DNA of 64,000 nucleotides. It comes from Octopus vulgaris (taxonomy: Eukaryota). Below the pieces are notes generated by a model that saw nothing but the letters and a program-made list of their open reading frames with translations, was not told where the DNA came from and searched no databases. A program made the position numbers and the translations under genes. The number at the start of each line of letters is the position of its first letter. The first letter of the stretch is position 1. Location of the stretch: contig OX597834.1 of assembly GCA_951406725.2 (NCBI GenBank), positions 6,014,001 to 6,078,000 of the forward strand, written 5' to 3'. Positions 20,485-57,949 of the stretch are shown here, piece after piece.

Positions 20485-20883
20485 AGTAAAGATTGTTTGA
20501 CAACATAACATGGCAGTCCTGGTTTAGGGCGAATGTTGCTGTAATTTAGCCCCAGGAGACATCGTCTCCAGCTGGCTATACAACACGATCTGTGTCCTTA
20601 TATTTTCGAAGAAGGGTATCAAGCACCCCCACTCAGCTCAAAATAATATCTGCGTATCATGATTTCTGGGTTATTTTCAGGTTATGAAGAGAAATGACCC
20701 AGAAATCATGGTACACAGATATTGTTTTGAGCTGAGTGGGGGTGCTAGATTCCCTTGTTCGAAATTATAAGGATACAGATCATGTCATATAACCAGCTGA
20801 AGACGATGTCTCCTGGGGCTAAATTACAGCAACATTCATCTTAAACCAGAACTGCCATGTTATGTTGGCAAACAATCTTTACT
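20485..20883. repeat. ~400-bp fold-back palindrome (~190-bp imperfect arms)
   Basis: agtaaagattgtttgacaacataacatggcag... versus ...ctgccatgttatgttggcaaacaatctttact; near-duplicate flanks tacattacagactga / tgcattatagactga. Confidence 0.85.
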
Positions 20884-29215: not shown

Positions 29216-29247
<32 letters not shown>

Positions 29248-29368
29248 AACAATAAAGGAACGGCCATAATAGGCCATTCACCCACTAGAAATAACAGCCA
29301 AAGCTTCAACCGCAAGTAAAAGTTAATTCAGTAAACCAGGAGAAAATTTAAAAAACATTTACCCTGTA

Positions 29369-29475
29369 ATTTCTTATACGATATACCGTTTCATCTGCTG
29401 ATTAATGGTAAACTAACCTGATTAAATTAAATCAAGCCTATCTTCCACAGGCCCTCAGATTCTTCAGTAAGAAAT
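29369..29475 (-). ncRNA. Type I hammerhead ribozyme, unit 1 (near-identical copies at 29862-29968, 30355-30461 and 30848-30954, all minus strand)
   Basis: Minus strand: atttctta-CTGAAGA-atctg-[58 nt]-cagat-GAAA-cggtatatcg-TA|taagaaat; 8-bp stem I, 5-bp stem II base, near-palindromic stem III, GUA cleavage triplet. Confidence 0.88.
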
Positions 29476-31445
29476 AGCCCAAGACGGAACAGATATTTTC
29501 ACGAGGCATTTCCGACGTTGCCAAGTTAATATCTGACCTAAAATTTTCAAATCGTCGCACTCGCGCCAAATTTATCGGCAGCAAATAAATATAAGCCGTC
29601 GATTCCATTACGGAATTAACCAGAAAATTCATAATTAATCAATATAGGGTGGCAAAAAAAAATTTTGTAGAATTCTTTTGCCACCAGCGGCCTAGTAGGA
29701 AAAATTAAAATAGTCATAGACCATTTTTAAGTTCAACATCAACAATAAAGGAACGGCCATAATAGGCCATTCACCCACTAGAAATAACAGCCAAAGCTTC
29801 AACCGCAAATAAAAGTTAATTCAGTAAACCAGGAGAAAATTTAAAAAACATTTACCCTGTAATTTCTTATACGATATACCGTTTCATCTGCTGATTAATG
29901 GTAAACTAACCTGATTAAATTAAATCAAGCCAATCTTCCACAGGCCCTCAGATTCTTCAGTAAGAAATAGCCCAAGACGGAACAGATATTTTCACGAGGC
30001 ATTTCCGACGTTGCCAAGTTAATATCTGACCTAAAATTTTCAAATCGTCGCACTCGCGCCAAATTTATCGGCAGCAAATAAATATAAGCCATCGATTCCA
30101 TTACGGAATTAACCAGAAAATTCATAATTAATCAATATAGGGTGGCAAAAAAAATTTTGTAGAATTCTTTTGCCACCAGCGGCCTAGTAGGAAAAAATTA
30201 AAATAGTCATAGACCATTTTTAAGTTCAACATCAACAATAAAGGAACGGCCATAATAGGCCATTCACCCACTAGAAATAACAGCCAAAGCTTCAACCGCA
30301 AATAAAAGTTAATTCAGTAAACCAGGAGAAAATTTAAAAAACATTTACCCTGTAATTTCTTATACGATATACCGTTTCATCTGCTGATTAATGGTAAACT
30401 AACCTGATTAAATTAAATCAAGCCAATCTTCCACAGGCCCTCAGATTCTTCAGTAAGAAATAGCCCAAGACGGAACAGATATTTTCACGAGGCATTTCCG
30501 ACGTTGCCAAGTTAATATCTGACCTAAAATTTTCAAATCGTCGCACTCGCGCCAAATTTATCGGCAGCAAATAAATATAAGCCGTCGATTCCATTACGGA
30601 ATTAACCAGAAAATTCATAATTAATCAATATAGGGTGGCAAAAAAAATTTTGTAGAATTCTTTTGCCACCAGCGGCCTAGTAGGAAAAAATTAAAATAGT
30701 CATAGACCATTTTTAAGTTCAACATCAACAATAAAGGAACGGCCATAATAGGCCATTCACCCACTAGAAATAACAGCCAAAGCTTCAACCGCAAATAAAA
30801 GTTAATTCAGTAAACCAGGAGAAAATTTAAAAAACATTTACCCTGTAATTTCTTATACGATATACCGTTTCATCTGCTGATTAATGGTAAACTAACCTGA
30901 TTAAATTAAATCAAGCCAATCTTCCACAGGCCCTCAGATTCTTCAGTAAGAAATAGCCCAAGACGGAACAGATATAGCCTGTGGAAGATTGGCTTGATTT
31001 AATTTAATCAGGTTAGTTTACCATTAATCAGCAGATGAAACGGTATATCGTATAAGAAATTACAGGGTAAATGTTTTTTAAATTTTCTCCTGGTTTACTG
31101 AATTAACTTTTATTTGCGGTTGAAGCTTTGGCTGTTATTTCTAGTGGGTGAATGGCCTATTATGGCCGTTCCTTTATTGTTGATGTTGAACTTAAAAATG
31201 GTCTATGACTATTTTAATTTTTTCCTACTAGGCCGCTGGTGGCAAAAGAATTCTACAAAATTTTTTTTGCCACCCTATATTGATTAATTATGAATTTTCT
31301 GGTTAATTCCGTAATGGAATCGACGGCTTATATTTATTTGCTGCCGATAAATTTGAGCGAGTGCGACGATTTGAAAATTTTAGGTCAGATATTAACTTGG
31401 CAACGTCAGAAATGCCTCGTGAAAATATCTGTTCCGTCTTGGGCT

Positions 31446-31552
31446 ATTTCTTACTGAAGAATCTGAGGGCCTGTGGAAGATTGGCTTGATTTAATTTAAT
31501 CAGGTTAGTTTACCATTAATCAGCAGATGAAACGGTATATCGTATAAGAAAT
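31446..31552 (+). ncRNA. Type I hammerhead ribozyme; predicted cleavage after 31544
   Basis: atttctta(31446-53) CTGAAGA(31454-60) atctg(31461-65) ... cagat(31524-28) GAAA(31529-32) cggtatatcg TA(31543-44) taagaaat(31545-52). Confidence 0.9.
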
Positions 31553-31939
31553 TACAGGGTAAATGTTTTTTAAATTTTCTCCTGGTTTACTGAATTAACT
31601 TTTATTTGCGGTTGAAGCTTTGGCTGTTATTTCTAGTGGGTGAATGGCCTATTATGGCCGTTCCTTTATTGTTGATGTTGAACTTAAAAATGGTCTATGA
31701 CTATTTTAATTTTTTCCTACTAGGCCGCTGGTGGCAAAAGAATTCTACAAAATTTTTTTTTGCCACCCTATATTGATTAATTATGAATTTTCTGGTTAAT
31801 TCCGTAATGGAATCGACGGCTTATATTTATTTGCTGCCGATAAATTTGGCGCGAGTGCGACGATTTGAAAATTTTAGGTCAGATATTAACTTGGCAACGT
31901 CGGAAATGCCTCGTGAAAATATCTGTTCCGTCTTGGGCT

Positions 31940-32046
31940 ATTTCTTACTGAAGAATCTGAGGGCCTGTGGAAGATTGGCTTGATTTAATTTAATCAGGTT
32001 AGTTTACCATTAATCAGCAGATGAAACGGTATATCGTATGAGAAAT
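31940..32046 (+). ncRNA. Type I hammerhead ribozyme; predicted cleavage after 32038
   Basis: Same fold; the stem I 3' arm tgagaaat turns one A-U pair into a G-U wobble. Confidence 0.88.
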
Positions 32047-32269
32047 TACAGGGTAAATGTTTTTAAATTTTCTCCTGGTTTACTGAATTAACTTTTATTT
32101 GCGGTTGAAGCTTTGGCTGTTATTTCTAGTGGGTGAATGGCCTATTATGGCCGTTCCTTTATTGTTGATGTTGAACTTAAAAATGGTCTATGACTATTTT
32201 AATTTTTTTCCTACTAGGCCGCTGGTGGCAAAAGAATTCTACAAAATTTTTTTTGGCACCCTATATTGA

Positions 32270-32312
<43 letters not shown>

Positions 32313-37427: not shown

Positions 37428-40400
37428 CTACAGGATCATGCTCAAAATGGTTTCGTTACTAGCACGCACCATCTTTGCAACATTCACCCATCTTTTTTTG
37501 AATCTTTCGCGAGACAAAACTTCCCTCTCCATTCTCACCTTCCTTTTCAAGTGGTACTTGAAAAAGTTGATGAGCGATTGGCCAGAGAGGTAAGTGTTTG
37601 TCTCTAATCCTTTCGCTCGAGTCCACCACACACATTCTTTCACCATGGCCACCAGTACGATGAAAACTGCCTTGCCTTCCCGGTTGAGGGAAGGGGGCGG
37701 AGCAATTCTCACGATAGACTCGGCCGATAGGCGGATTCGTCCCACACGTGACAGCAGCCGTTCGGCATAAGCCCACAGGTCGGAAATGGTTGGACATTGC
37801 ACGAGTGCGTGCAGAACGGTTTCGTCGCTCTGACCGCATCTCGGGCAAGTCGGTCCAGTGTGTCTGGAACCGTGTCTGTAGAGCTTATCCCGAACAGGTA
37901 ATGCTTCTCGATAGCACTGCCAGGCCAGGGATCTTTGATGATTGTTCATAGGTCCCGGCCCGAAAGTTGTCCTGAACAGGCGGGTCAGGTGTTCCTCGTC
38001 GACGCCCAGACTCTGCCCGAGTTCGTCGTCGCGCCTCCCCTCCACTAATCCTCTATAGAATGCCTTTGTTGTGATGGAGTCGCACAAGTTCGATCCCGGA
38101 CGGCAGAGTTGCTTGAGAGCAACGCGACACTCGCGGTGCCATTCGCCTAGCCTCGGTCTCTGCTTGATCCATGACTGTAGTTCGTCCAAGGAGACGAGCT
38201 GCGGGAAAGCGCGCCGCACAAAGGCGACCACCCCTGTTCACCGTTGTCTATGAAGCGCCGGAGATGTCGCAGTCTCAGCGCATGTCTGCGCATCATCAAC
38301 CACGGCATGCCCAGCCCTCCATTTAGCGGGTGTTGGCAGCAAATGGATCGCCTAACCATCGGAACGTTTCCCTTCCACAAGAAGCGGAAGAGTATGCGTT
38401 CCAGTTTGGTGATGGTAGGGTCGGGACAAGGCACGACGGTCAGACGATACTCGATGACGGATGCGATGTACGCGTTCGCCACCTCCGCCCGACCTTTTAG
38501 GGATAGCTTTCTCTCAGTCCATTTCTGGGTGAGAGTAGCCACCCTAGTCGTTATCTCGCCCCAGTTCTTCTCCATTTGGAGGTCCGGACCGAACCAGACC
38601 CCGAGCAATTTAACCGGTCCGTCCGTCCAGCGTCCCACGATGGAGACGCTGTTGGACGGCATGGGCTTGCTTCTCCAGGTGCCGAGCCGCAAGCCCACTG
38701 ACTTTTCCCGGTTAATTTTTGCTCCCGTTACCGCTTCGTATTCTTTCAGTGTCTCGCCGACCAGCTCGATGTGCTCGTAGCTCGACACTATGACGGTGAC
38801 GTCATCCGCGTATGCAGACACGCTCCTCCCGCATCCCAGCTCTCGTGGGATGCCCCTCAGCGTCGCCAGTTTCCGCAGTAGTGGCTCAAGAGTCAGTACA
38901 TACAGCAGCGATGAGAGGGGGCATCCCTGACGAACCGAACGCATGATGTTAAAAGGTCTGGATAGATGACCATTTACGCGAACTACTGAGCGGATGCCGC
39001 TGTATAAGGCAGCGATCCAACCGCGGAAAACTGGACCGAAACCAGCCGCTTTGAGGACAGCCTCCAAGTAGTGATGGTCTACCCTATCGAAGGCTTTTGA
39101 TTGATCCAAATTGATCAGCGCCCCACCCATGCCAGGATTTTTAACTACCCTGTCTATGATGTAGCGCATCAGGTGGAGGTTGTCATGAATACTTCTACCC
39201 GGCACGGCGCATGTTTGCGCCTTGTCGATTAGTTTCTTGATGACAAGCGCCAACCTCTCGGCTAACACCTTGGCCAAAATTTTCAAATCTGCGTTGAGCA
39301 GAGTGATGGGCCTGAAATTATCTATGACGTCCCCCTTGTTTGGGTCTTTCTTGATCAGTGCCACTGCTCCTCGCTTTACAAAAGCAGGAATACTCCCGTT
39401 CTGCTGCCAGTTGCAGTAGACAGCTGCCAAGACGCCTCCAAACAAGTCTGGCATATGAAAATAAAATTCGTAGGGCAGACCATCCAAGCCTGGTGACTTG
39501 TCTCTCGCGCAGCCTACCATCGCATCCTGTACGTCCGCAGCTGTGATAGGCTTTTCACAAGACTCCACCTCCCTTGCTGAGAGTCGTGGCAAGGCATGCA
39601 GGTAGGCACTAAAGTCCACTCTGCTTTCTGACTCACCACTTGTCCCAAACAGTTGGGTGAAGTGTTGTTGAAAAACCCCACACATCCTTTTAGGCTCGAG
39701 CAATTCGCGCCCCTGTTCATCTATAAGAGACTTGATGGTGGCTCTGTTGCCTCGTTGCGTCTCCACCACTCGGGCCTCTTGGGCGGCTCCAACTCCTTCG
39801 TTCCTCAGAGCACGCATCCTAGCTCTGACAACGCATCCCTCGTGTTTGGCGTTGAGGTGTTGGTCGAGGGCCAATCTCGCCGCCAGTACGTTGGACGCGA
39901 TGCCAGTTCTAAGTGCCTCTTCTAAAACCTTAACTAAATCTCCCTCTATTCTATTTCGGTCTAATGCTAGGGCTCTACTGTATCTGACTGATTCTGCTTT
40001 AATCGCTTTTTTAGGGCATACCACCATCTGTTGTTGATGATGGTACCCGTCAAAGCTCTCTTAACTAATGTGCTGATCCGGTCCCTGTAAACCTGTCGTG
40101 CTGTAAAAGACGCGTTCAGTTTCCAGTAACCAGGACCCTGCCTATGTGTCTTATCTAAGTCAAGTGTACAAGTCACAAACTTGTGATCTGTGTAACTGAC
40201 TATATGAAATTGTGGACAACCTACACTATTTTTATCTATTGTCCTACAGAATACTCTATCTAAGTATGATCTGGACGACCCGATGCGGTTACTCCATGTC
40301 CACATTGGCACATTCGGGTGGTCCAGTCGGTACCTGTCAGACAGTTGGAAACGTCTGAGCAGGTCTTTGAGGCATTTGCATCCCCTTCTATTGCTATCTC

Positions 40401-40864
40401 TGCCCACGTAGTCTAGATGCGTGTCCAGGGTGGCATTCCAATCCCCCACTAAAAGTAAAGGACGAGACGTTCCCATGAAAGACTCTAGACGTCGAAAGAA
40501 ATCTGGTCGGCCTGTTAAGGACGGAGCATAAACTGCTATCAGTCGAAAAGCACACTCATTGCTGCCATCGACATCTAAAACGACCAGCCTACCCTCCGGG
40601 TCTAGGAAATTTAGCTCTTACTTTGAGATCCAGACTCTTCCGGATAAGCACCGCGGTGCCACCTCCGCCCATTCTCGGTAGACACGGAGAAAAATAAATG
40701 TTGAAATGTGTACCGAAAATGTGCTGGAGTGCCCGCAAGCTGTGGAGTCTGGTCTCACTGATGGCTATGATATTCAGATTTAGTGACTTGATGTCATTTA
40801 ACAGGTAGCCTTGTTTCCAAGGCGACCCCAAGCCACGTACATTTATACTACCTATTCTGAGCAT
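37428..40864 (-). CDS. LINE ORF2: AP-like endonuclease + reverse transcriptase + C-terminal CCHC (zf-RVT); about 3 frameshifts (~40600, ~40020, ~38235)
   Basis: MLRIGSINVRGL, ISETRL, VGDWN, SRSYLDR, YTDH (APE); KSPGLDGL, FRPITLLN, KAFDRV, QGCPLS, YADD (RT); CPRCGQSDETVLHALVQC; pieces 40589..40882, 39967..40476, 38147..40027, 37428..38231. Confidence 0.9.
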
Positions 40865-43069
40865 GTTCCGATAAAAGTGCAAAAAAGGAAAAGGAGAGAG
40901 AAAAGGTTACTTGTTTTTTCGAAAGTTCTTTGTCTTTCACCTCACGGTCTTCTTCTATGAGGCTTTTATACAGTTTTTTCGATGAGTACTTTTGAAATCT
41001 CCCTACTGCATCAGGGTAAAGAGATTTCAGGGTGTTGTATGTGTTCTGTGTCACGTGTATTATTTTAATGTGTTGTGGTGGTGTTGTGTGTGGGTGGTTA
41101 CTTGTTTTTATGTCGTTTTCAGTAATGTTAGTGTTTGACCTAATGTGTTCCATTAGGTCGTGGTTGTTTGTGTTAATGGCTGTCAACATTTTTGGGGGGT
41201 TTGATGATGGTGTGTTTGTGCTGATGTGTGTGTTTCTGTGGATGTTTTTGTTTCGGGAGTGGTGTATCTTCCCGCTTTGTTTGTTATTTTTTCTTTTCTT
41301 TTTTTCCCCTTTTTCTTCTCCCCCTGTGGCTATTTGCCAATCTTCCGTGTCTTCTTCGTCTAATGACAGATCGGACGAATCGGAGTCTGGAAGAGGGAAA
41401 GTATTGGGGTCTATTGTCGACTGTGTTGGTTTTGTTGTTGGTGTTGGTTGGTGAGCGTTTGGTTGTGGTGTATGCAGTTTTGGATGTGGGGTTTGGGTAT
41501 TTTGTGTTTGAGTGATTGTGGGTATTGTTGTGTTGTTTAGGGTCTCAATTTTGTGGGGATTTGGAGTTGTAATTGTTTCTTCATTTTTGCTGGGTGTCTT
41601 TTTGGCAGATGTCCTTGGTTTGGGAGTTGGTATATTCTTGGTTGTTGTTGTTGTTGGTGATGCTGCTTCTGTTCTTGGTGCTGCAGTTGGTGTGGTTGTT
41701 TGTTTGGTGAGGTTTGTTCCTGCAAAAAGTGGTGTGGGTAGTAAACCTTGTTTATTTGTTTTTGTTTCCGGCTGCTGTTGTTGTTGCTGTTGTTTTCTTG
41801 CGGCAGATTTGCAGTCTTTTTTGAGATGTTGCTCACTGCCGCATATGTAGCAACGTGGTCTTCTGCCATCGACGACCACATATAACTTGTGGTCGTCTGA
41901 TACACATATCTGGGTGGGTATTTTTTTTATATCTTCATGATGTATATGTAGAAGAAATTCTATTTTTTTCCCACCCAGTTTTTATGCTCTGTGACTGTGG
42001 TTTCCAAAATAGTATAATTCGCCATTTTTATGCATAAGGCCTTTACAAGCCATAGACTATTGGCTATTTTGGGGACATTGTTTAGAGTGATCTTAGTCAC
42101 TTTCTGTCCCCGATAGCTTGGTGTAAGTTGGAGTTCATCTGAGTGAAGAGTTAGCGTTGAGAAATGTCTAGCTAACTCTTCGGTGTAGAAAACAACTTGT
42201 ATGTGGGCAAATTTGTTCCACCAGGTTACATATTCTTTGTGATCCCAGATGGGTTTCAAGCACTTCTCTATTTTGCTTGTGTTGGCCTTCTCTGGGATTT
42301 TTGTTTTTTTGTTAACTATTTTATAAATGATTGTTCGTCTTTTTTCATTTTCCAAAATATCTTCTGGTATGTTTATTTTTACTATACCTTCTGATTCTGT
42401 TATTTTGATGTTCGTGTCCTGTATTTGTTGAGCCGTGAAGTATATTGTTGTTTTTTTTTCTTTAATCGCCTCAGCGAAATTTGTTGTTGTTTTGTTATTG
42501 TTGTTGCTTGTGGTGATGTTGTTGTTGGCTGCCGTTTGTAAAATTGGTGTGTTTGGTTCGATCGTGCAAGTAGGAAGGGGTGGGAAATTGCCTGCGTACT
42601 TTAGTCCTGCACTAGGGCAAATTTCGACATTTCGTTTGCTTGTCGTCGTTATTTTTTCACTTGTTGGTGATGGAGTGAGCAGTGGTTGAAGGGAATTGTT
42701 GTTGTCGTCGTTGTTGTTGTTGTTGTTGTTGTTATTGTCGTTCTTGGTGACGGCGGTGGTGTTGGTAGTATTAGTAGCATTGACGGCACGGTCTTTGGTG
42801 GCGGTGATGGTGATGTTGGTGTTGTTGTTGGTGGCGATATCTTTAGTAGGGATAGCAGTTTTAGTAGCAGATTCTGCCATGGTGTTGGTGGTGGTGGTGG
42901 ACTCACTGATGGTGTTGACGGTGCTTGGCCTTGCGACCTTTGTTTTGTATTTGTTGCTGTTGATGGTGGTGGAGTTGTCAGGTTCGGCGTATGCTAACAG
43001 AGCATCCTGTTTTTCTGTTTGTGCGTCACGCTTGACTTGCAACTCAGCCTCGTGGTGGCCAGTGGCCAT
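40848..43069 (-). CDS. LINE ORF1 (gag-like nucleic-acid chaperone), frameshifted near 41960-41880
   Basis: ATG at 43069 (MATGHHEAE), Thr/Asn-rich N-terminus, CYICGSEQHLKKDC zinc knuckle; overlaps the ORF2 start by 17 nt. Confidence 0.8.
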
Positions 43070-43235
43070 TTTGGAAATAAAATGGCTAAATGAAACCACG
43101 AAGGCTATGAGAATTTTTTCTTTTAAATTTTGCCCACAAGGGGCAAAATTTTGTGTCGATATTTATCAAAGGTTTACAGTGGATGTTGTTACACAACTTT
43201 TAAGCACAAAATGTTTGTCAATATACACTTTTAAA

Positions 43236-53216: not shown

Positions 53217-53218
<2 letters not shown>

Positions 53219-53381
53219 GGAGTAAACACATATATGTGAAACAAGGTGGAAAAAAGAGTATTCAAATACCAGTACTCAAATATTTAAAAGCAGCAGAATT
53301 CTAGCAAAAACTGTCCGACGAATGGGAACGTGAAACTCAGAGTAACAGGTTTTGTTGAATTTTCTGCCGCTTTTAAATAAA

Positions 53382-53383
<2 letters not shown>
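53217..53383. mobile_element. Head-to-head copy of the 35178-35340 hammerhead repeat, between (TA)n tracts
   Basis: 53217-53272 is the reverse complement of 35284-35339; HHR at 53305-53354 ctgt-CCGACGA-atg-ggaa-cgt-GAAA-ctcagag-TA-acag (core U to C). Confidence 0.75.
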
Positions 53384-53430
<47 letters not shown>

Positions 53431-53436
<6 letters not shown>

Positions 53437-54010
53437 TCAATAATAATATAGGGTGAAATTAATTAATTTGGAATAAATTCCAAATTAATTAATTTCACCC
53501 TATATTATTATTGATAATTATATTTCATCCCAGTAAAAAACCGTAGCATCTTATTTTGGCAGCACGCTGGCGGAAGGGGAATGGTGACATACTTTCATTC
53601 ACCCTTTGAATTTGGTGGTACTGGTAATGGCTTACGCTCGCTCTGATACCATGAGTTGAGGTGATGTCTTCTAGTGCCTTCAAATTTAATACACAATTAT
53701 TAATAATTGAGACGCAATTATTTATAATTGAAGAGTCCTACGCTGAAGAGGAAAATAGTTGGGTAAGACATAATTATTTAATTTTTATGCTTTCCTATGA
53801 CTTAATTCCGAAACGTACGTCCGTAGGTGACTTAATATAGAATGATTGTCGTCATTTCTTTCTCCTTTGCCTGTGTTGTTTGCCTTTTAAGTGCTGTGGT
53901 TTTACTGGGATCTCCCTTTTAAGTAGAAAGAATAGCCAAAACTCTTTGACTGCTATTTCTAAATTCGGTGTGTGGTGAGGCAAATCGTTGCTAAACCCTT
54001 AATTACTTAG
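53431..54010 (+). mobile_element. Second retrozyme-like element (~580 bp) with a fold-back 5' end, between (TA)n tracts
   Basis: 43-bp perfect inverted arms 53431-53520; contains a canonical hammerhead; shares caccctatatt and ctttg(a/g)ctg(c/t)tatttcta with the 493-bp unit. Confidence 0.7.
53734..53832 (+). ncRNA. Type I hammerhead ribozyme; predicted cleavage after 53821
   Basis: agt-cctacg-CTGAAGA(53743-49)-ggaa-[52 nt]-ttcc-GAAA(53810-13)-cgtacg-TC|cgtagg-tg-act. Confidence 0.9.
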
Positions 54011-55020
54011 TATATATATATATATATGTGTGTGTAAATATATGTATATAATAATTATATGTGCTTATATGTGTAGAATATGTGAAGAGAGACAGGGGAA
54101 ATAGCATAATGTATACAATGTCAATTAAATCTCCTAATACATTGTCTTCTGTTCTAATATTTTTTTTTATAAAGACAAACATTGACAATATACCTCAACA
54201 CTACTCCACCCCACCATCACTACTTTAACCCTTTCGCATTTAAACTAGCCATACTCTGCCCAAGGAGGCGCATTGGCCCAGTGGTTAGGACAGCAGACTC
54301 GCGGTTGTAGGATCGCGGTTTCGATTCCCAGACCGGGCGTTGTGAGTGTTTATTGAGTGAAAACACCTAAAAGCTCCACAATGCTCCGGCAGGGGATGGT
54401 GGTGATCCCTGCTGTACTCTTTCACCACAACTTTCTCTCACTCTTACTTCCTGTTTCTGTTGTACCTGTATTTCAAAGGGCCGGCCTTGTCACTCTCTGT
54501 GTCATGCTGAATATCCCCGAGAACTACGTTAAGAGTACACGTGTCTGTGGAATGCTCAGCCACTTACACGTTAATTTCACGAGCAGGCTGTTCCATTGAT
54601 CGGATCAACCGGAACCCTCGTCGTCATAACCGACGGAGTGCTCCCATCCACTCTGCCCAAATATTCTATCTGCTTTATGTTCAAACAGGCCAGATCCAGC
54701 CTCTCACACCCACCCTACACTGTTATTCTAAAAATAAGCAATCACATCTTCATCATCATTTTGAATCTACAAGATAATACATGATTAATCTTTAAAAATT
54801 TGGATAAACTACATGTGGGGTAACGGTTAGGGTTTCTGGCTTTCACCTAGGCACCCTGTGTTCAATTCTCAGCTCAGGAACATTTTTATGTTTTGTAGTA
54901 TTTTCACTAGGTTGTGATGCAGCATGGCCACAGTCTAATGGCTGAAACAAGTAAAAGATAAAAGATGAAATAAGCATTAATAAATCTCTGAACGAGGTAT
55001 AAACAGTAACTGCACGACAA

Positions 55021-56250: not shown

Positions 56251-57949
56251 TATACATCAGGGTACATGTATAGCCATGTAGTAATTGAATTTTGTTTATG
56301 TAATCATATGATTCCAGGTTTGATTCCGCCACCTGACCCCTTCGGTTATCTCCTTTTTGTAGCCCTGTGATGACTAATGCTTTTCGAAAGGAACCTGCTA
56401 AAGTTCATAGATTTCATGTATGCATCTATGCATTCGCATGTGAGTGTAGCTGACCATGTGTCTGCCTATGATTATATTTATTTGCGCAAAAGCTGGTCTG
56501 GTGTCAAAGAACATAACTCGGTAATTCAATAAAATATAAATCAATAAATCAATAAAATAAATTTCAGACCAAAATGTATTCTGGGTTCTAAGTCTAAGAT
56601 TACATTTGTTTTATTACACAAGCATTAACCATCTTCATTTTATCTTTTATCTTTTATCTTTAACTTGCTTCAGTCACTTACTGCGGCCATGCTGGGGCTC
56701 TGCTTTGAAGAATTTCTACTTCAATAAATCGACCCAAGTACTTTTTTTTAAAGTCTGGTACTTTTGTTGGTCCTTTTTACTGAAATGCTATGTTACTGGG
56801 ATGTAAACAAACCAATACCGGTTGTCAAGCAGTGGTTGGCAGACAAACACAGACATAAAGACATACACTCATATCTCTATATTCTTTTATTCTTTTATTC
56901 TTGTTTCAGTTATTTGACTGTGGCCATGCTGGAGCACTGCCATGCAGTGAGACTGAACCTGGAACTATGTGGTTGGAATGCAAACTTCTCACCACACAGC
57001 CATACCTGCACCTATTTCCAGCATATTATTTTCAAGACTAGTTTATCCATTACGTTGGCATATTTTGAAGGCATTTACCTGGAATTTGAAGATGATTTAA
57101 CTACTATTTCTAGCAGACTGAGTGACTTGGAGTTTTCTTTTGTTCCTTTTTGCTGTTTTTTTTTCCCTTACATAATATTTATATTGCAATCTTCTGTACT
57201 ACTTCTTTGTGTATTTGTGTCCTTCTATCAATACAAGGAATCGCTCTGTCGTCGTAGCACGGCTGTAATGATTGATTTTCTAGATGTATTTTAAACAAAA
57301 TGTCTGCTTTGCTCTTGTGTCTCTGTTATTCAATATTATTACTATTATGGTGCAATGTCATAAGGTCACCGGTGGAGTTTCTTATTTAACGTTATTACCA
57401 CAACAGGTGATGTCAAAAGGTCACAGTTGGGGTCAGTCTTTTGACTTTATGATTACAACCACAGTGATCATCTTAATGTCACCAATACAATTTGTGATTT
57501 GATGTTATTATTAAAGTAGGAGGTCATAAAGTCACTGTCACCTTCCATTGTATGATATTACAAAACACAGAGTGATGTCGTAAGATCATTTTTTAAAGTC
57601 TTTATTTGATGTTACTTCTTCCCTTTCATGTCATAAATTCATTCTTATAATCTGCAATCTTTCGTTATTACTACAGCCTATGATGTCATAAATTCTCAAG
57701 CACAGCATATCTCCAAAGGTCTCAGTCACTTGTCATTGCCTCTGTGAGGCCCAATGTTCGAAGGTCGTGCTTCAACACCTCCTCCCAGGTCTTCCTGAGT
57801 CTACCTCTTCCACAGGTTCATACTACTGCTAAGGTGTGATACTTTTCTACACAGCTGTCCTCATCCATTTGCAATACATGACCATACCAGTACAAGTCAT
57901 CTGTCTTGTACGTGTGAGCATGCAGAAAATAGTAAATTGAAAAAATACC

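Follow-up and report, generated by a model that had tools for sequence, protein, structure and literature searches.

A two-armed insertion of a predicted hammerhead ribozyme unit in (TA)n tracts of Octopus vulgaris and its likely copying by a Penelope-type reverse transcriptase

The insert and its predicted hammerhead ribozyme

The window analyzed here, a stretch of 64,000 nucleotides from Octopus vulgaris, contains an insert at 53433–54011 that is flanked on both sides by TA tracts, with (TA)25 as the left target tract (53383–53432) and a right tract at 54012–54027; the ~580-bp insert between (TA)n tracts proposed in the original prediction was therefore borne out. The insert consists of two arms: an inverted, 5'-truncated arm of 44 nt on the minus strand (53433–53476; L001), which ends at the long 3' end (L) of a repeat unit that we call family A, and a direct arm on the plus strand (53477–54011), which holds 535 of the 600 bases of this unit and ends at its short 3' end (S). 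The predicted length fits the insert but not the unit, which is 600 bp long, 65 bp being absent from the window copy. Similarly, the predicted fold-back is present, and 53428–53518 matches its own reverse complement at 97.8% identity, but it is not the 5' end of the unit; the fold-back at 53433–53476 is an inverted copy, 44 bases long, of the long 3' end.

Along the direct arm, all on the plus strand, lie the 3' half of the terminal hairpin H3 with the A/U-rich tail that forms end L (53477–53517, with 'caccctatatt' at 53496–53506), the hammerhead (53737–53827), hairpin H0 (53930–53961), whose 3' arm is the shared motif M1 (53944–53961), and a segment at 53964–54011 composed of the 5' arm of an outer helix (53964–53973), hairpin H1 (53974–53997) and the tail that forms end S. 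The 3' partner of the outer helix falls within the 65 bp missing from this copy, and 'caccctatatt' stands upstream of the hammerhead only because the copy is circularly permuted. The element used for comparison, at 29245–32274, is a two-armed array of the 493-bp family B, with 3.5 units on the minus strand ending at S and 2.6 units on the plus strand ending at L.

Other features of the window were observed alongside these elements. Directly upstream of the family A element, another insert between TA tracts (53218–53382) carries a short hammerhead with a C-to-U-site core change and, over its final 86 bases, shares 90% identity with the 3' end of a Penelope-type element (PLE) of the Hydra clade (L124). 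A non-LTR retrotransposon occupies 37428–43162 on the minus strand, with ORF1-like, endonuclease-like and reverse transcriptase (RT) sequences split over several frames (domain labels by eye), and a long imperfect inverted repeat of ~140 nt at 20614–20754 was flagged solely by a sub-threshold miRNA model.

The clean hammerhead with a long stem II that had been predicted at the locus was confirmed: a 6-bp stem I (53737–53742 with 53822–53827), the core CUGAAGA, a stem II of 60 nt (a 4-bp base plus 52 nt), GAAA, a stem III of 2 bp within an 8-nt palindrome, and GUC at 53819–53821, with the predicted cut 3' of 53821. It is a type I hammerhead and is predicted to be self-cutting. A generic scan of both strands recovered this hammerhead and seven in the 493-bp array, and no further hammerhead exceeded the scan thresholds on either strand of the window; the Rfam hammerhead families gave no match anywhere in the window at E ≤ 1, where only microsatellite-driven miRNA noise appeared. 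Because Rfam is blank and the isolated motif is not unusually stable, folding no better than shuffles (z −1.05) and lacking stem III in its minimum free energy structure, it is conservation that makes the case for the hammerhead. Of 36 copies (L001–L030), 28 retain an intact core. Across 21 relatives, in an alignment that comprises kin sequences plus five motifs which are short or distant and fit poorly in stem II, 92.4% of cells are paired and 13 of 27 pairs have two-sided changes, with 25–46% paired in slid-partner controls; these figures support the fold but are not probabilities, since the sequences are related and the structures were derived from them.

Genome-wide, a loose long-stem pattern gave 65,720 hits versus 10,541 for its control, and a large population of hammerheads with a long stem II in the octopus genome thus escapes descriptor and Rfam searches. 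From 100 listed hits, 60 stretches were taken after exclusion of random-looking ones by eye, and a stricter stem test left 28 of them; owing to this exclusion, the 28 units give no genome-wide frequency. Two decayed Hydra-clade elements (L167:1529–2630, and L133 near 2930, oriented) have hammerhead-like motifs with a stem II of 52–54 nt after their ORF, and the long stem II is thus not confined to non-coding units. Back-to-back pairs of the loose hammerhead pattern, ~80 nt apart, were also observed at several loci (G000:C1:1415856–1416006, 3630032–3630187 and 4021935–4022085).

Family A copies, their two 3' ends and two-armed insertions

A search of the 2.8-Gb genome yielded 123 family A matches with 91–99% identity (among 40 scored of 2,129 candidates), and an exact 20-nt piece of the 3' half of the hammerhead occurs in at least 883 genome copies, with 0 for its control. 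The flanks of family A copies show a 600-bp period, made up of the 535 bases present in the window copy and the 65 absent from it. Variable 5' truncation, partial tandems (five of seven comparisons used, two mis-anchored ones being left out) and permuted starts are all found among the copies, and subfamilies at 76–85% identity form arrays of 584–599-bp units with up to 4 complete repeats. The expectation of tandem or permuted occurrence, which was to be checked together with the unit length, agrees with these copies, and the contrary possibility that the element never occurs in either form does not hold, because both forms are present. The predicted superfamily of ~0.5–0.6-kb hammerhead units likewise exists as a multi-family group with tandem and permuted copies; this group belongs to a known class, that of the non-LTR retrozymes or non-autonomous PLE derivatives.

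The unit is non-coding, with a longest stop-free frame of 70 aa and a GC content of 35.5%, and as a 600-base circle it folds at −162 kcal/mol versus −126 ± 5 for 30 mononucleotide shuffles. Contigs of four runs, which we guess to be RNA, cover 28–30 of 30 unit bins and join the unit end to its start, a joint also expected from tandem DNA or read-through. Identity within arrays is uninformative on rolling-circle copying, since arrays at different loci are as alike (99.0–99.5%) as neighbours within one array. Nothing points to a host function of family A.

Family A copies abut TA tracts, the microsatellite target, at their 3' ends, and they do so at one of two positions: S, at unit positions 531–543, or L, at 33–48 of the next unit. 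Family B ends ~39 nt (S) and ~143 nt (L) after motif M1, and the distance between S and L is about 105–110 nt. The pairing of one S-ended with one L-ended arm, as in both window elements, recurs elsewhere. Among 51 loci, namely those behind the first 100 motif matches, picked regardless of their ends, 25 are two-armed insertions (five arms being short or partly deleted), and by our reading 23 of these 25 pair S with L; the exceptions, L243 and L252, have both arms at or near S. The L001–L030 set, which is biased towards S, gave 9 S-plus-L pairs, 1 atypical and 1 undetermined. A two-armed form with this asymmetry was also found in an autonomous Neptune copy (L235), which has different ends of its own, ~30 nt apart.

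According to passages of two sources, partial tandems, inverted 5'-truncated copies, tails and a bias towards (TA)n are marks of PLEs (PMC8557442, PMC3846280), and in a part of a third, a PLE protein is described as cutting and extending both strands, with two internal start sites that delimit the tail (PMC11167929). Judged from sequence, the insertion features of family A are insertion marks of this Penelope type.

Motif M1, a predicted shared 3' fold and a proposed model of copying

Families A and B of the window were predicted to share two motifs in otherwise unalignable sequence, and all three parts of this statement hold. The 18-nt block M1 (53944–53961) matches the 493-bp unit (31618–31635) at 16 of 18 positions and is the best local match between the two (pairwise E 0.01), 'caccctatatt' is shared at 15 of 16 with a gap, and the alignment Z of the two families is 0–0.5. 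A degenerate M1 18-mer has 7,555 exact hits in the genome versus 1 for the reversed control, mostly reflecting copy number; of the 51 loci behind the first 100 matches, 48 are A- or B-group units; in ~22, a loose pattern still detects a hammerhead core no more than 330 nt upstream, and most of the others are truncated.

By their 3' regions, the long-stem units fall into an A-group (A, its 77% subfamily, C, E and F), a B-group (B, D, D2, D3, K and, weakly, J) and the unrelated groups X, Y and Z. Alignment Z is 7–95 among the five A-group units and 7–43 among B, D, D2, D3 and K, whereas whole-region alignment between the two clades reaches 3.7 at most, so that homology of A and B rests on M1 and fold topology. 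Family G (L190) combines a B-like outer helix with weak A-group similarity (Z 3.8–6.3). A matrix from the five A-group M1 sequences finds the site in four of six B-group units at 0/300 shuffles (for the remaining two, K 8/300 and J none), and the B-derived matrix finds M1 in 5/5 A-group units, although both matrices were anchored by a pattern drawn from both clades, which favours such cross-matches. M1 is thus kept in five A-group and four B-group families despite drift elsewhere. Six X/Y/Z units and three Hydra ends gave only background matrix scores, and nine Neptune ends scored near background; a GC-A-TTTTC-like block of the Neptune 3' ends was considered as M1 and rejected, as only one of the nine reached 3/300 shuffles. 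As a mark of the whole superfamily, the shared block therefore holds for both clades but marks only one of at least three sampled groups of long-stem hammerheads. Groups X (L152, L198) and Y (L184, L166) were observed to have conserved blocks of their own and insertions with a short and a long arm end, and to be without M1.

The 3' ~200 nt of the two clades are predicted to fold alike, with the same order of helices in single ends and in consensus folds calculated separately from 10 A-group and 5 B-group ends. H0, which includes part of M1, is followed by the outer helix around H1, end S and a variable region, and then by H3 and end L; S and L each lie ~10–18 nt behind a CC-closing hairpin, on an A/U-rich strand. 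The sharing of 'caccctatatt' is explained by this arrangement, because the motif is the foot of H3 plus the A/U-rich strand. In the A-group fold, 93.2% of cells are paired and 6 of 36 pairs have two-sided changes, all in the outer helix and H1, and the covariation term of the consensus fold is slightly unfavourable (+0.32); the B-group fold has two-sided changes in 9 of 40 predicted pairs (five sequences). H0 and H3 are without any two-sided change. Since the sequences are related and the structures were derived from them, shuffle values for the 3' fold are not to be read as probabilities. M1 pairs differently in the two clades while its sequence is kept, and in this it behaves, we infer, as a protein contact would. 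The cross-clade 3' fold is what the family A locus adds; the class of element itself is not new.

M1 holds its distance to the 3' ends better than that to the hammerhead. It lies 154 nt from L in family A, 146 in family B and 148–177 in the A-group, with shorter distances in D-type units, and 64–126 nt from the cut site. A ligation role, one of three offered for the shared motif, finds no support in the latter range, which is too great and too variable for a linear ligation signal. Of the three, RT recognition appears to be the best fit.

M1-like sequence also recurs in an old dispersed repeat, with 49 hits versus 0 for the reversed control in 867 kb not chosen for M1, the 49 including some real units. 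Among 29 M1-like instances outside recognizable units, a hammerhead-like core precedes 2 and a TA tract follows 1, and the downstream flank of the old repeat resembles B-group flanks in four of five comparisons (p about 0.001–0.03). This repeat may be a decayed relative. Old repeats in which M1 is the best-kept part were observed in the window at 57096, 45165, 28148, 18381 and 18503, and further ones at L024, L126, L136, L169, L256 and other loci.

We consider it likely that the insert is an incomplete, two-armed copy of a 600-base hammerhead unit that was copied into (TA)n by the reverse transcriptase-endonuclease of an autonomous PLE, and that the shared blocks belong to a predicted 3' fold that sets two copying starts. 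The hammerhead would cleave multimeric transcripts, probably acting as a dimer formed through the palindromic stem III, and the transcripts may then be circularised. A PLE protein would bind the 3' module, that is, H0 with M1, the outer helix enclosing H1 and end S, and then H3 with end L; it would nick both strands of the (TA)n tract and prime a separate cDNA at each of S and L, in both cases on the A/U-rich strand immediately 3' of a CC-closing hairpin. The two truncated cDNAs would be joined head to head, in the window copy an L-primed cDNA of 44 nt and an S-primed one of 535 nt; because of these lengths, the window copy cannot yield a full monomer. More tentatively, the 3' ~200 nt might constitute a conserved dual-priming platform, in which the outer helix loops out S beside L so that a dimeric PLE protein can prime both strands on one RNA; M1 would then be the protein contact, ancient enough to have persisted in both clades, unalignable as they are, and in a decayed genome-wide repeat.

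We think it unlikely that M1, in the same class of element, is a DNA-level promoter or factor-binding site, shared by the clades or captured independently, and not RT-binding RNA. The conservation of the M1 sequence under different pairing and its recurrence in old repeats with poorly conserved flanks would suit such a site, and a precedent exists in newt satellite 2, which is said in the accessible text of PMC2220036 to use an snRNA-type promoter. On the other hand, the spacing of M1 is steadier to the 3' ends than to the hammerhead, and an snRNA-type promoter role, the third of the predicted roles, did not survive comparison with snRNA genes: M1 (up to 4 mismatches, sense strand) is absent from the 130 nt upstream of 25/25 U2 loci and from the 120 nt upstream of 24 distinct U1 loci, and a U2-derived upstream matrix matches neither unit A nor unit B (19–148 of 200 shuffles reach the score). 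M1 as the U1/U2 upstream element was accordingly rejected, the upstream block of these genes being different from M1. The U1 and U2 genes (L280–L304, L325–L349) have a common upstream block that ends in ATCAGT, ~50–60 nt before the start, which is a candidate snRNA promoter element of the octopus genome.

Still less probable, in our estimation, is a fold-back origin of the two arms, in which one cDNA would snap back on a hairpin and copy itself and the ends would be TA-like stretches that anneal to the target. The starts of the two arms of the window copy are no more than 2 nt apart, inside the H3 loop, near-symmetric junctions also occur at L003, L008, L034 and L244, and self-priming has been proposed for palindromic junctions of PLEs in a passage of PMC3846280; such snapping back may account for the junction itself in the symmetric cases. 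At L002 and L013, however, one arm carries sequence that the other could not have templated, passes S and stops at L, and fold-back alone does not predict S-plus-L pairing at 23 of 25 loci. That A and B are unrelated and share their blocks by chance or convergence in AT-rich DNA is very improbable: hairpins followed by A/U tails are easily found in sequence of 35% GC, and the low Z values between the clades and between the window families would fit, but M1 is present in five A-group and four B-group families and absent from six control families and three Hydra ends, its place in the succession of H1, S, H3 and L agrees between the clades, and family G has an outer helix like that of B together with weak similarity to the A-group.

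Candidate helpers, known systems and significance

For the proposed copying by a PLE protein, an autonomous helper was sought with a GIY-YIG family search, three degenerate RT-motif patterns and 80 fetched stretches, a sampling that is far from exhaustive. Among the resulting 140 PLE loci (30 GIY-YIG, 50 Hydra-motif and 60 Neptune/Poseidon-motif), many of them truncated, none has M1 or a 3' end alignable to A or B. M1-like matches inside PLE loci were considered as PLE ends and rejected, as they are separate insertions in TA tracts. By eye, no M1 was seen in the 3' ends of Naiad_Ovul and Naiad_Obim in the available part of the PMC8557442 supplement, from which the exact motif strings are also absent, although its line breaks can hide matches. 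The genome holds intact Neptune ORFs of 781 and 784 aa (the L067 family and L221, respectively) and an intact Hydra ORF of 762 aa (L124), together with more decayed PLE families and one Poseidon-type family; one locus matches, by eye, the published Hydra-1_Obim.

The long arm of the two-armed Neptune insertion L235 (G000:C1:25776700–25782200) ends in a 45-nt A-type long end with its terminal hairpin, joined at a short CACCCT overlap. This A-type end on a Neptune copy is unique in the genome; we therefore regard L235 as a chimera and reject an A-ended Neptune subfamily. The A-type end could be due to a template switch or to a later insertion, and a nested insertion explains it equally well. L235, long ends in TTTCACCC, and U3-A8-type cores both in Neptune ends and in A-group family C are weak hints of Neptune. 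With low confidence, we favour a Neptune-clade element as the most likely helper, giving it about an even chance, with the remainder going to Hydra or to a family outside the sample. The 3' UTRs of L067, L221 and other Neptune elements contain hammerhead-like motifs in which the core is of U3-A8 type and stem III is a 4-nt palindrome. The UTR of the 781-aa Neptune family contains what we take to be repeated CCAAT- and CRE-like boxes and a TATA-like box.

By every testable feature, family A is an animal non-LTR retrozyme with PLE insertion marks, its cleavage being predicted from sequence. In the accessible portions of the cited papers, animal non-LTR retrozymes (Cervera & de la Peña 2020; Li, Clavereau & Pollet 2026) are, like family A, tandem, non-coding, low-GC units that each carry a single type I hammerhead with a short palindromic helix III, and the family A unit is within the reported size range of 51–972 bp; PLEs have been proposed as the helper (PMC7229834; bioRxiv 10.64898/2026.07.22.740005). 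The octopus families differ in their stem II, which is 60–70 nt long as opposed to ~4 bp and a short loop. Cleavage and circles were demonstrated for some animal families in these two sources, with failure in eight of nine Xenopus elements; in the octopus families both are putative. Within the available text of PMC7229834 and of the preprint, we found no cephalopod and no mention of insertions with two arms, of a pair of fixed ends or of a 3' fold common to several families.

From partial text of PMC8557442 and PMC3846280, the endonuclease-bearing (EN+) PLEs Neptune and Hydra and the non-autonomous Chlamys elements, such as MRC1, share with family A 5' truncation, partial tandems, an inverted 5'-truncated arm, an optional 3' tail at one end, (TA)n targets and a hammerhead near the 3' end. 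Unlike the autonomous EN+ PLEs, family A has no ORF, and its tail is ~105–110 nt long versus 30–40 bp; non-autonomous Chlamys elements generally share 3' identity with an autonomous family, whereas family A does so with none of those sampled. For the Poseidon element PAc of Anolis, the accessible part of an in vitro study (Frangieh et al. 2024, PMC11167929) describes cutting and extension of both strands, two internal RT starts that delimit the tail, a stem-loop where synthesis begins and a predicted protein dimer, which can be compared with the scheme proposed here for octopus. The PAc starts lie near each other within a single AC-rich stem-loop, and the RNA is that of an autonomous element; in the octopus units, by contrast, the starts would be ~105–110 nt apart, each with its own hairpin, in a non-coding RNA.

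The PLE-associated minimal and canonical metazoan hammerheads, as treated in the available sections of Cervera & de la Peña (2014, PMC4209133), are of type I with a helix III of 1–2 bp and a palindromic loop that suits cleavage as a dimer, like family A, and their U3-A8 core variant is also found in the A-group relative L038; their helix II has 4–8 bp versus an interrupted stem of ~19 pairs in family A. With respect to satellites with an snRNA promoter, of which newt satellite 2 is the type in the portion of the source available, the octopus units are without the host snRNA upstream element (U1 and U2 compared). Our literature search, the coverage of which excludes Repbase, subscription papers and preprint supplements, returned no description of the octopus long-stem families and no match for the M1 sequence, the long stem II, the 105–110-nt tail or the cross-clade 3' fold, although Repbase and the preprint supplements may hold such families.

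To date, the link between retrozymes and PLEs in animals has consisted mostly of co-occurrence and pLTR similarity. A small RNA that ends at two fixed places and whose defined 3' fold shows covariation is a ready substrate for mutate-and-rescue experiments on priming in vitro, and it bears on how PLEs make tails and head-to-head inversions. If the 3' fold is indeed a platform for dual priming, these non-coding parasites would reveal the cis element and the geometry behind the tails and inverted arms of PLEs.
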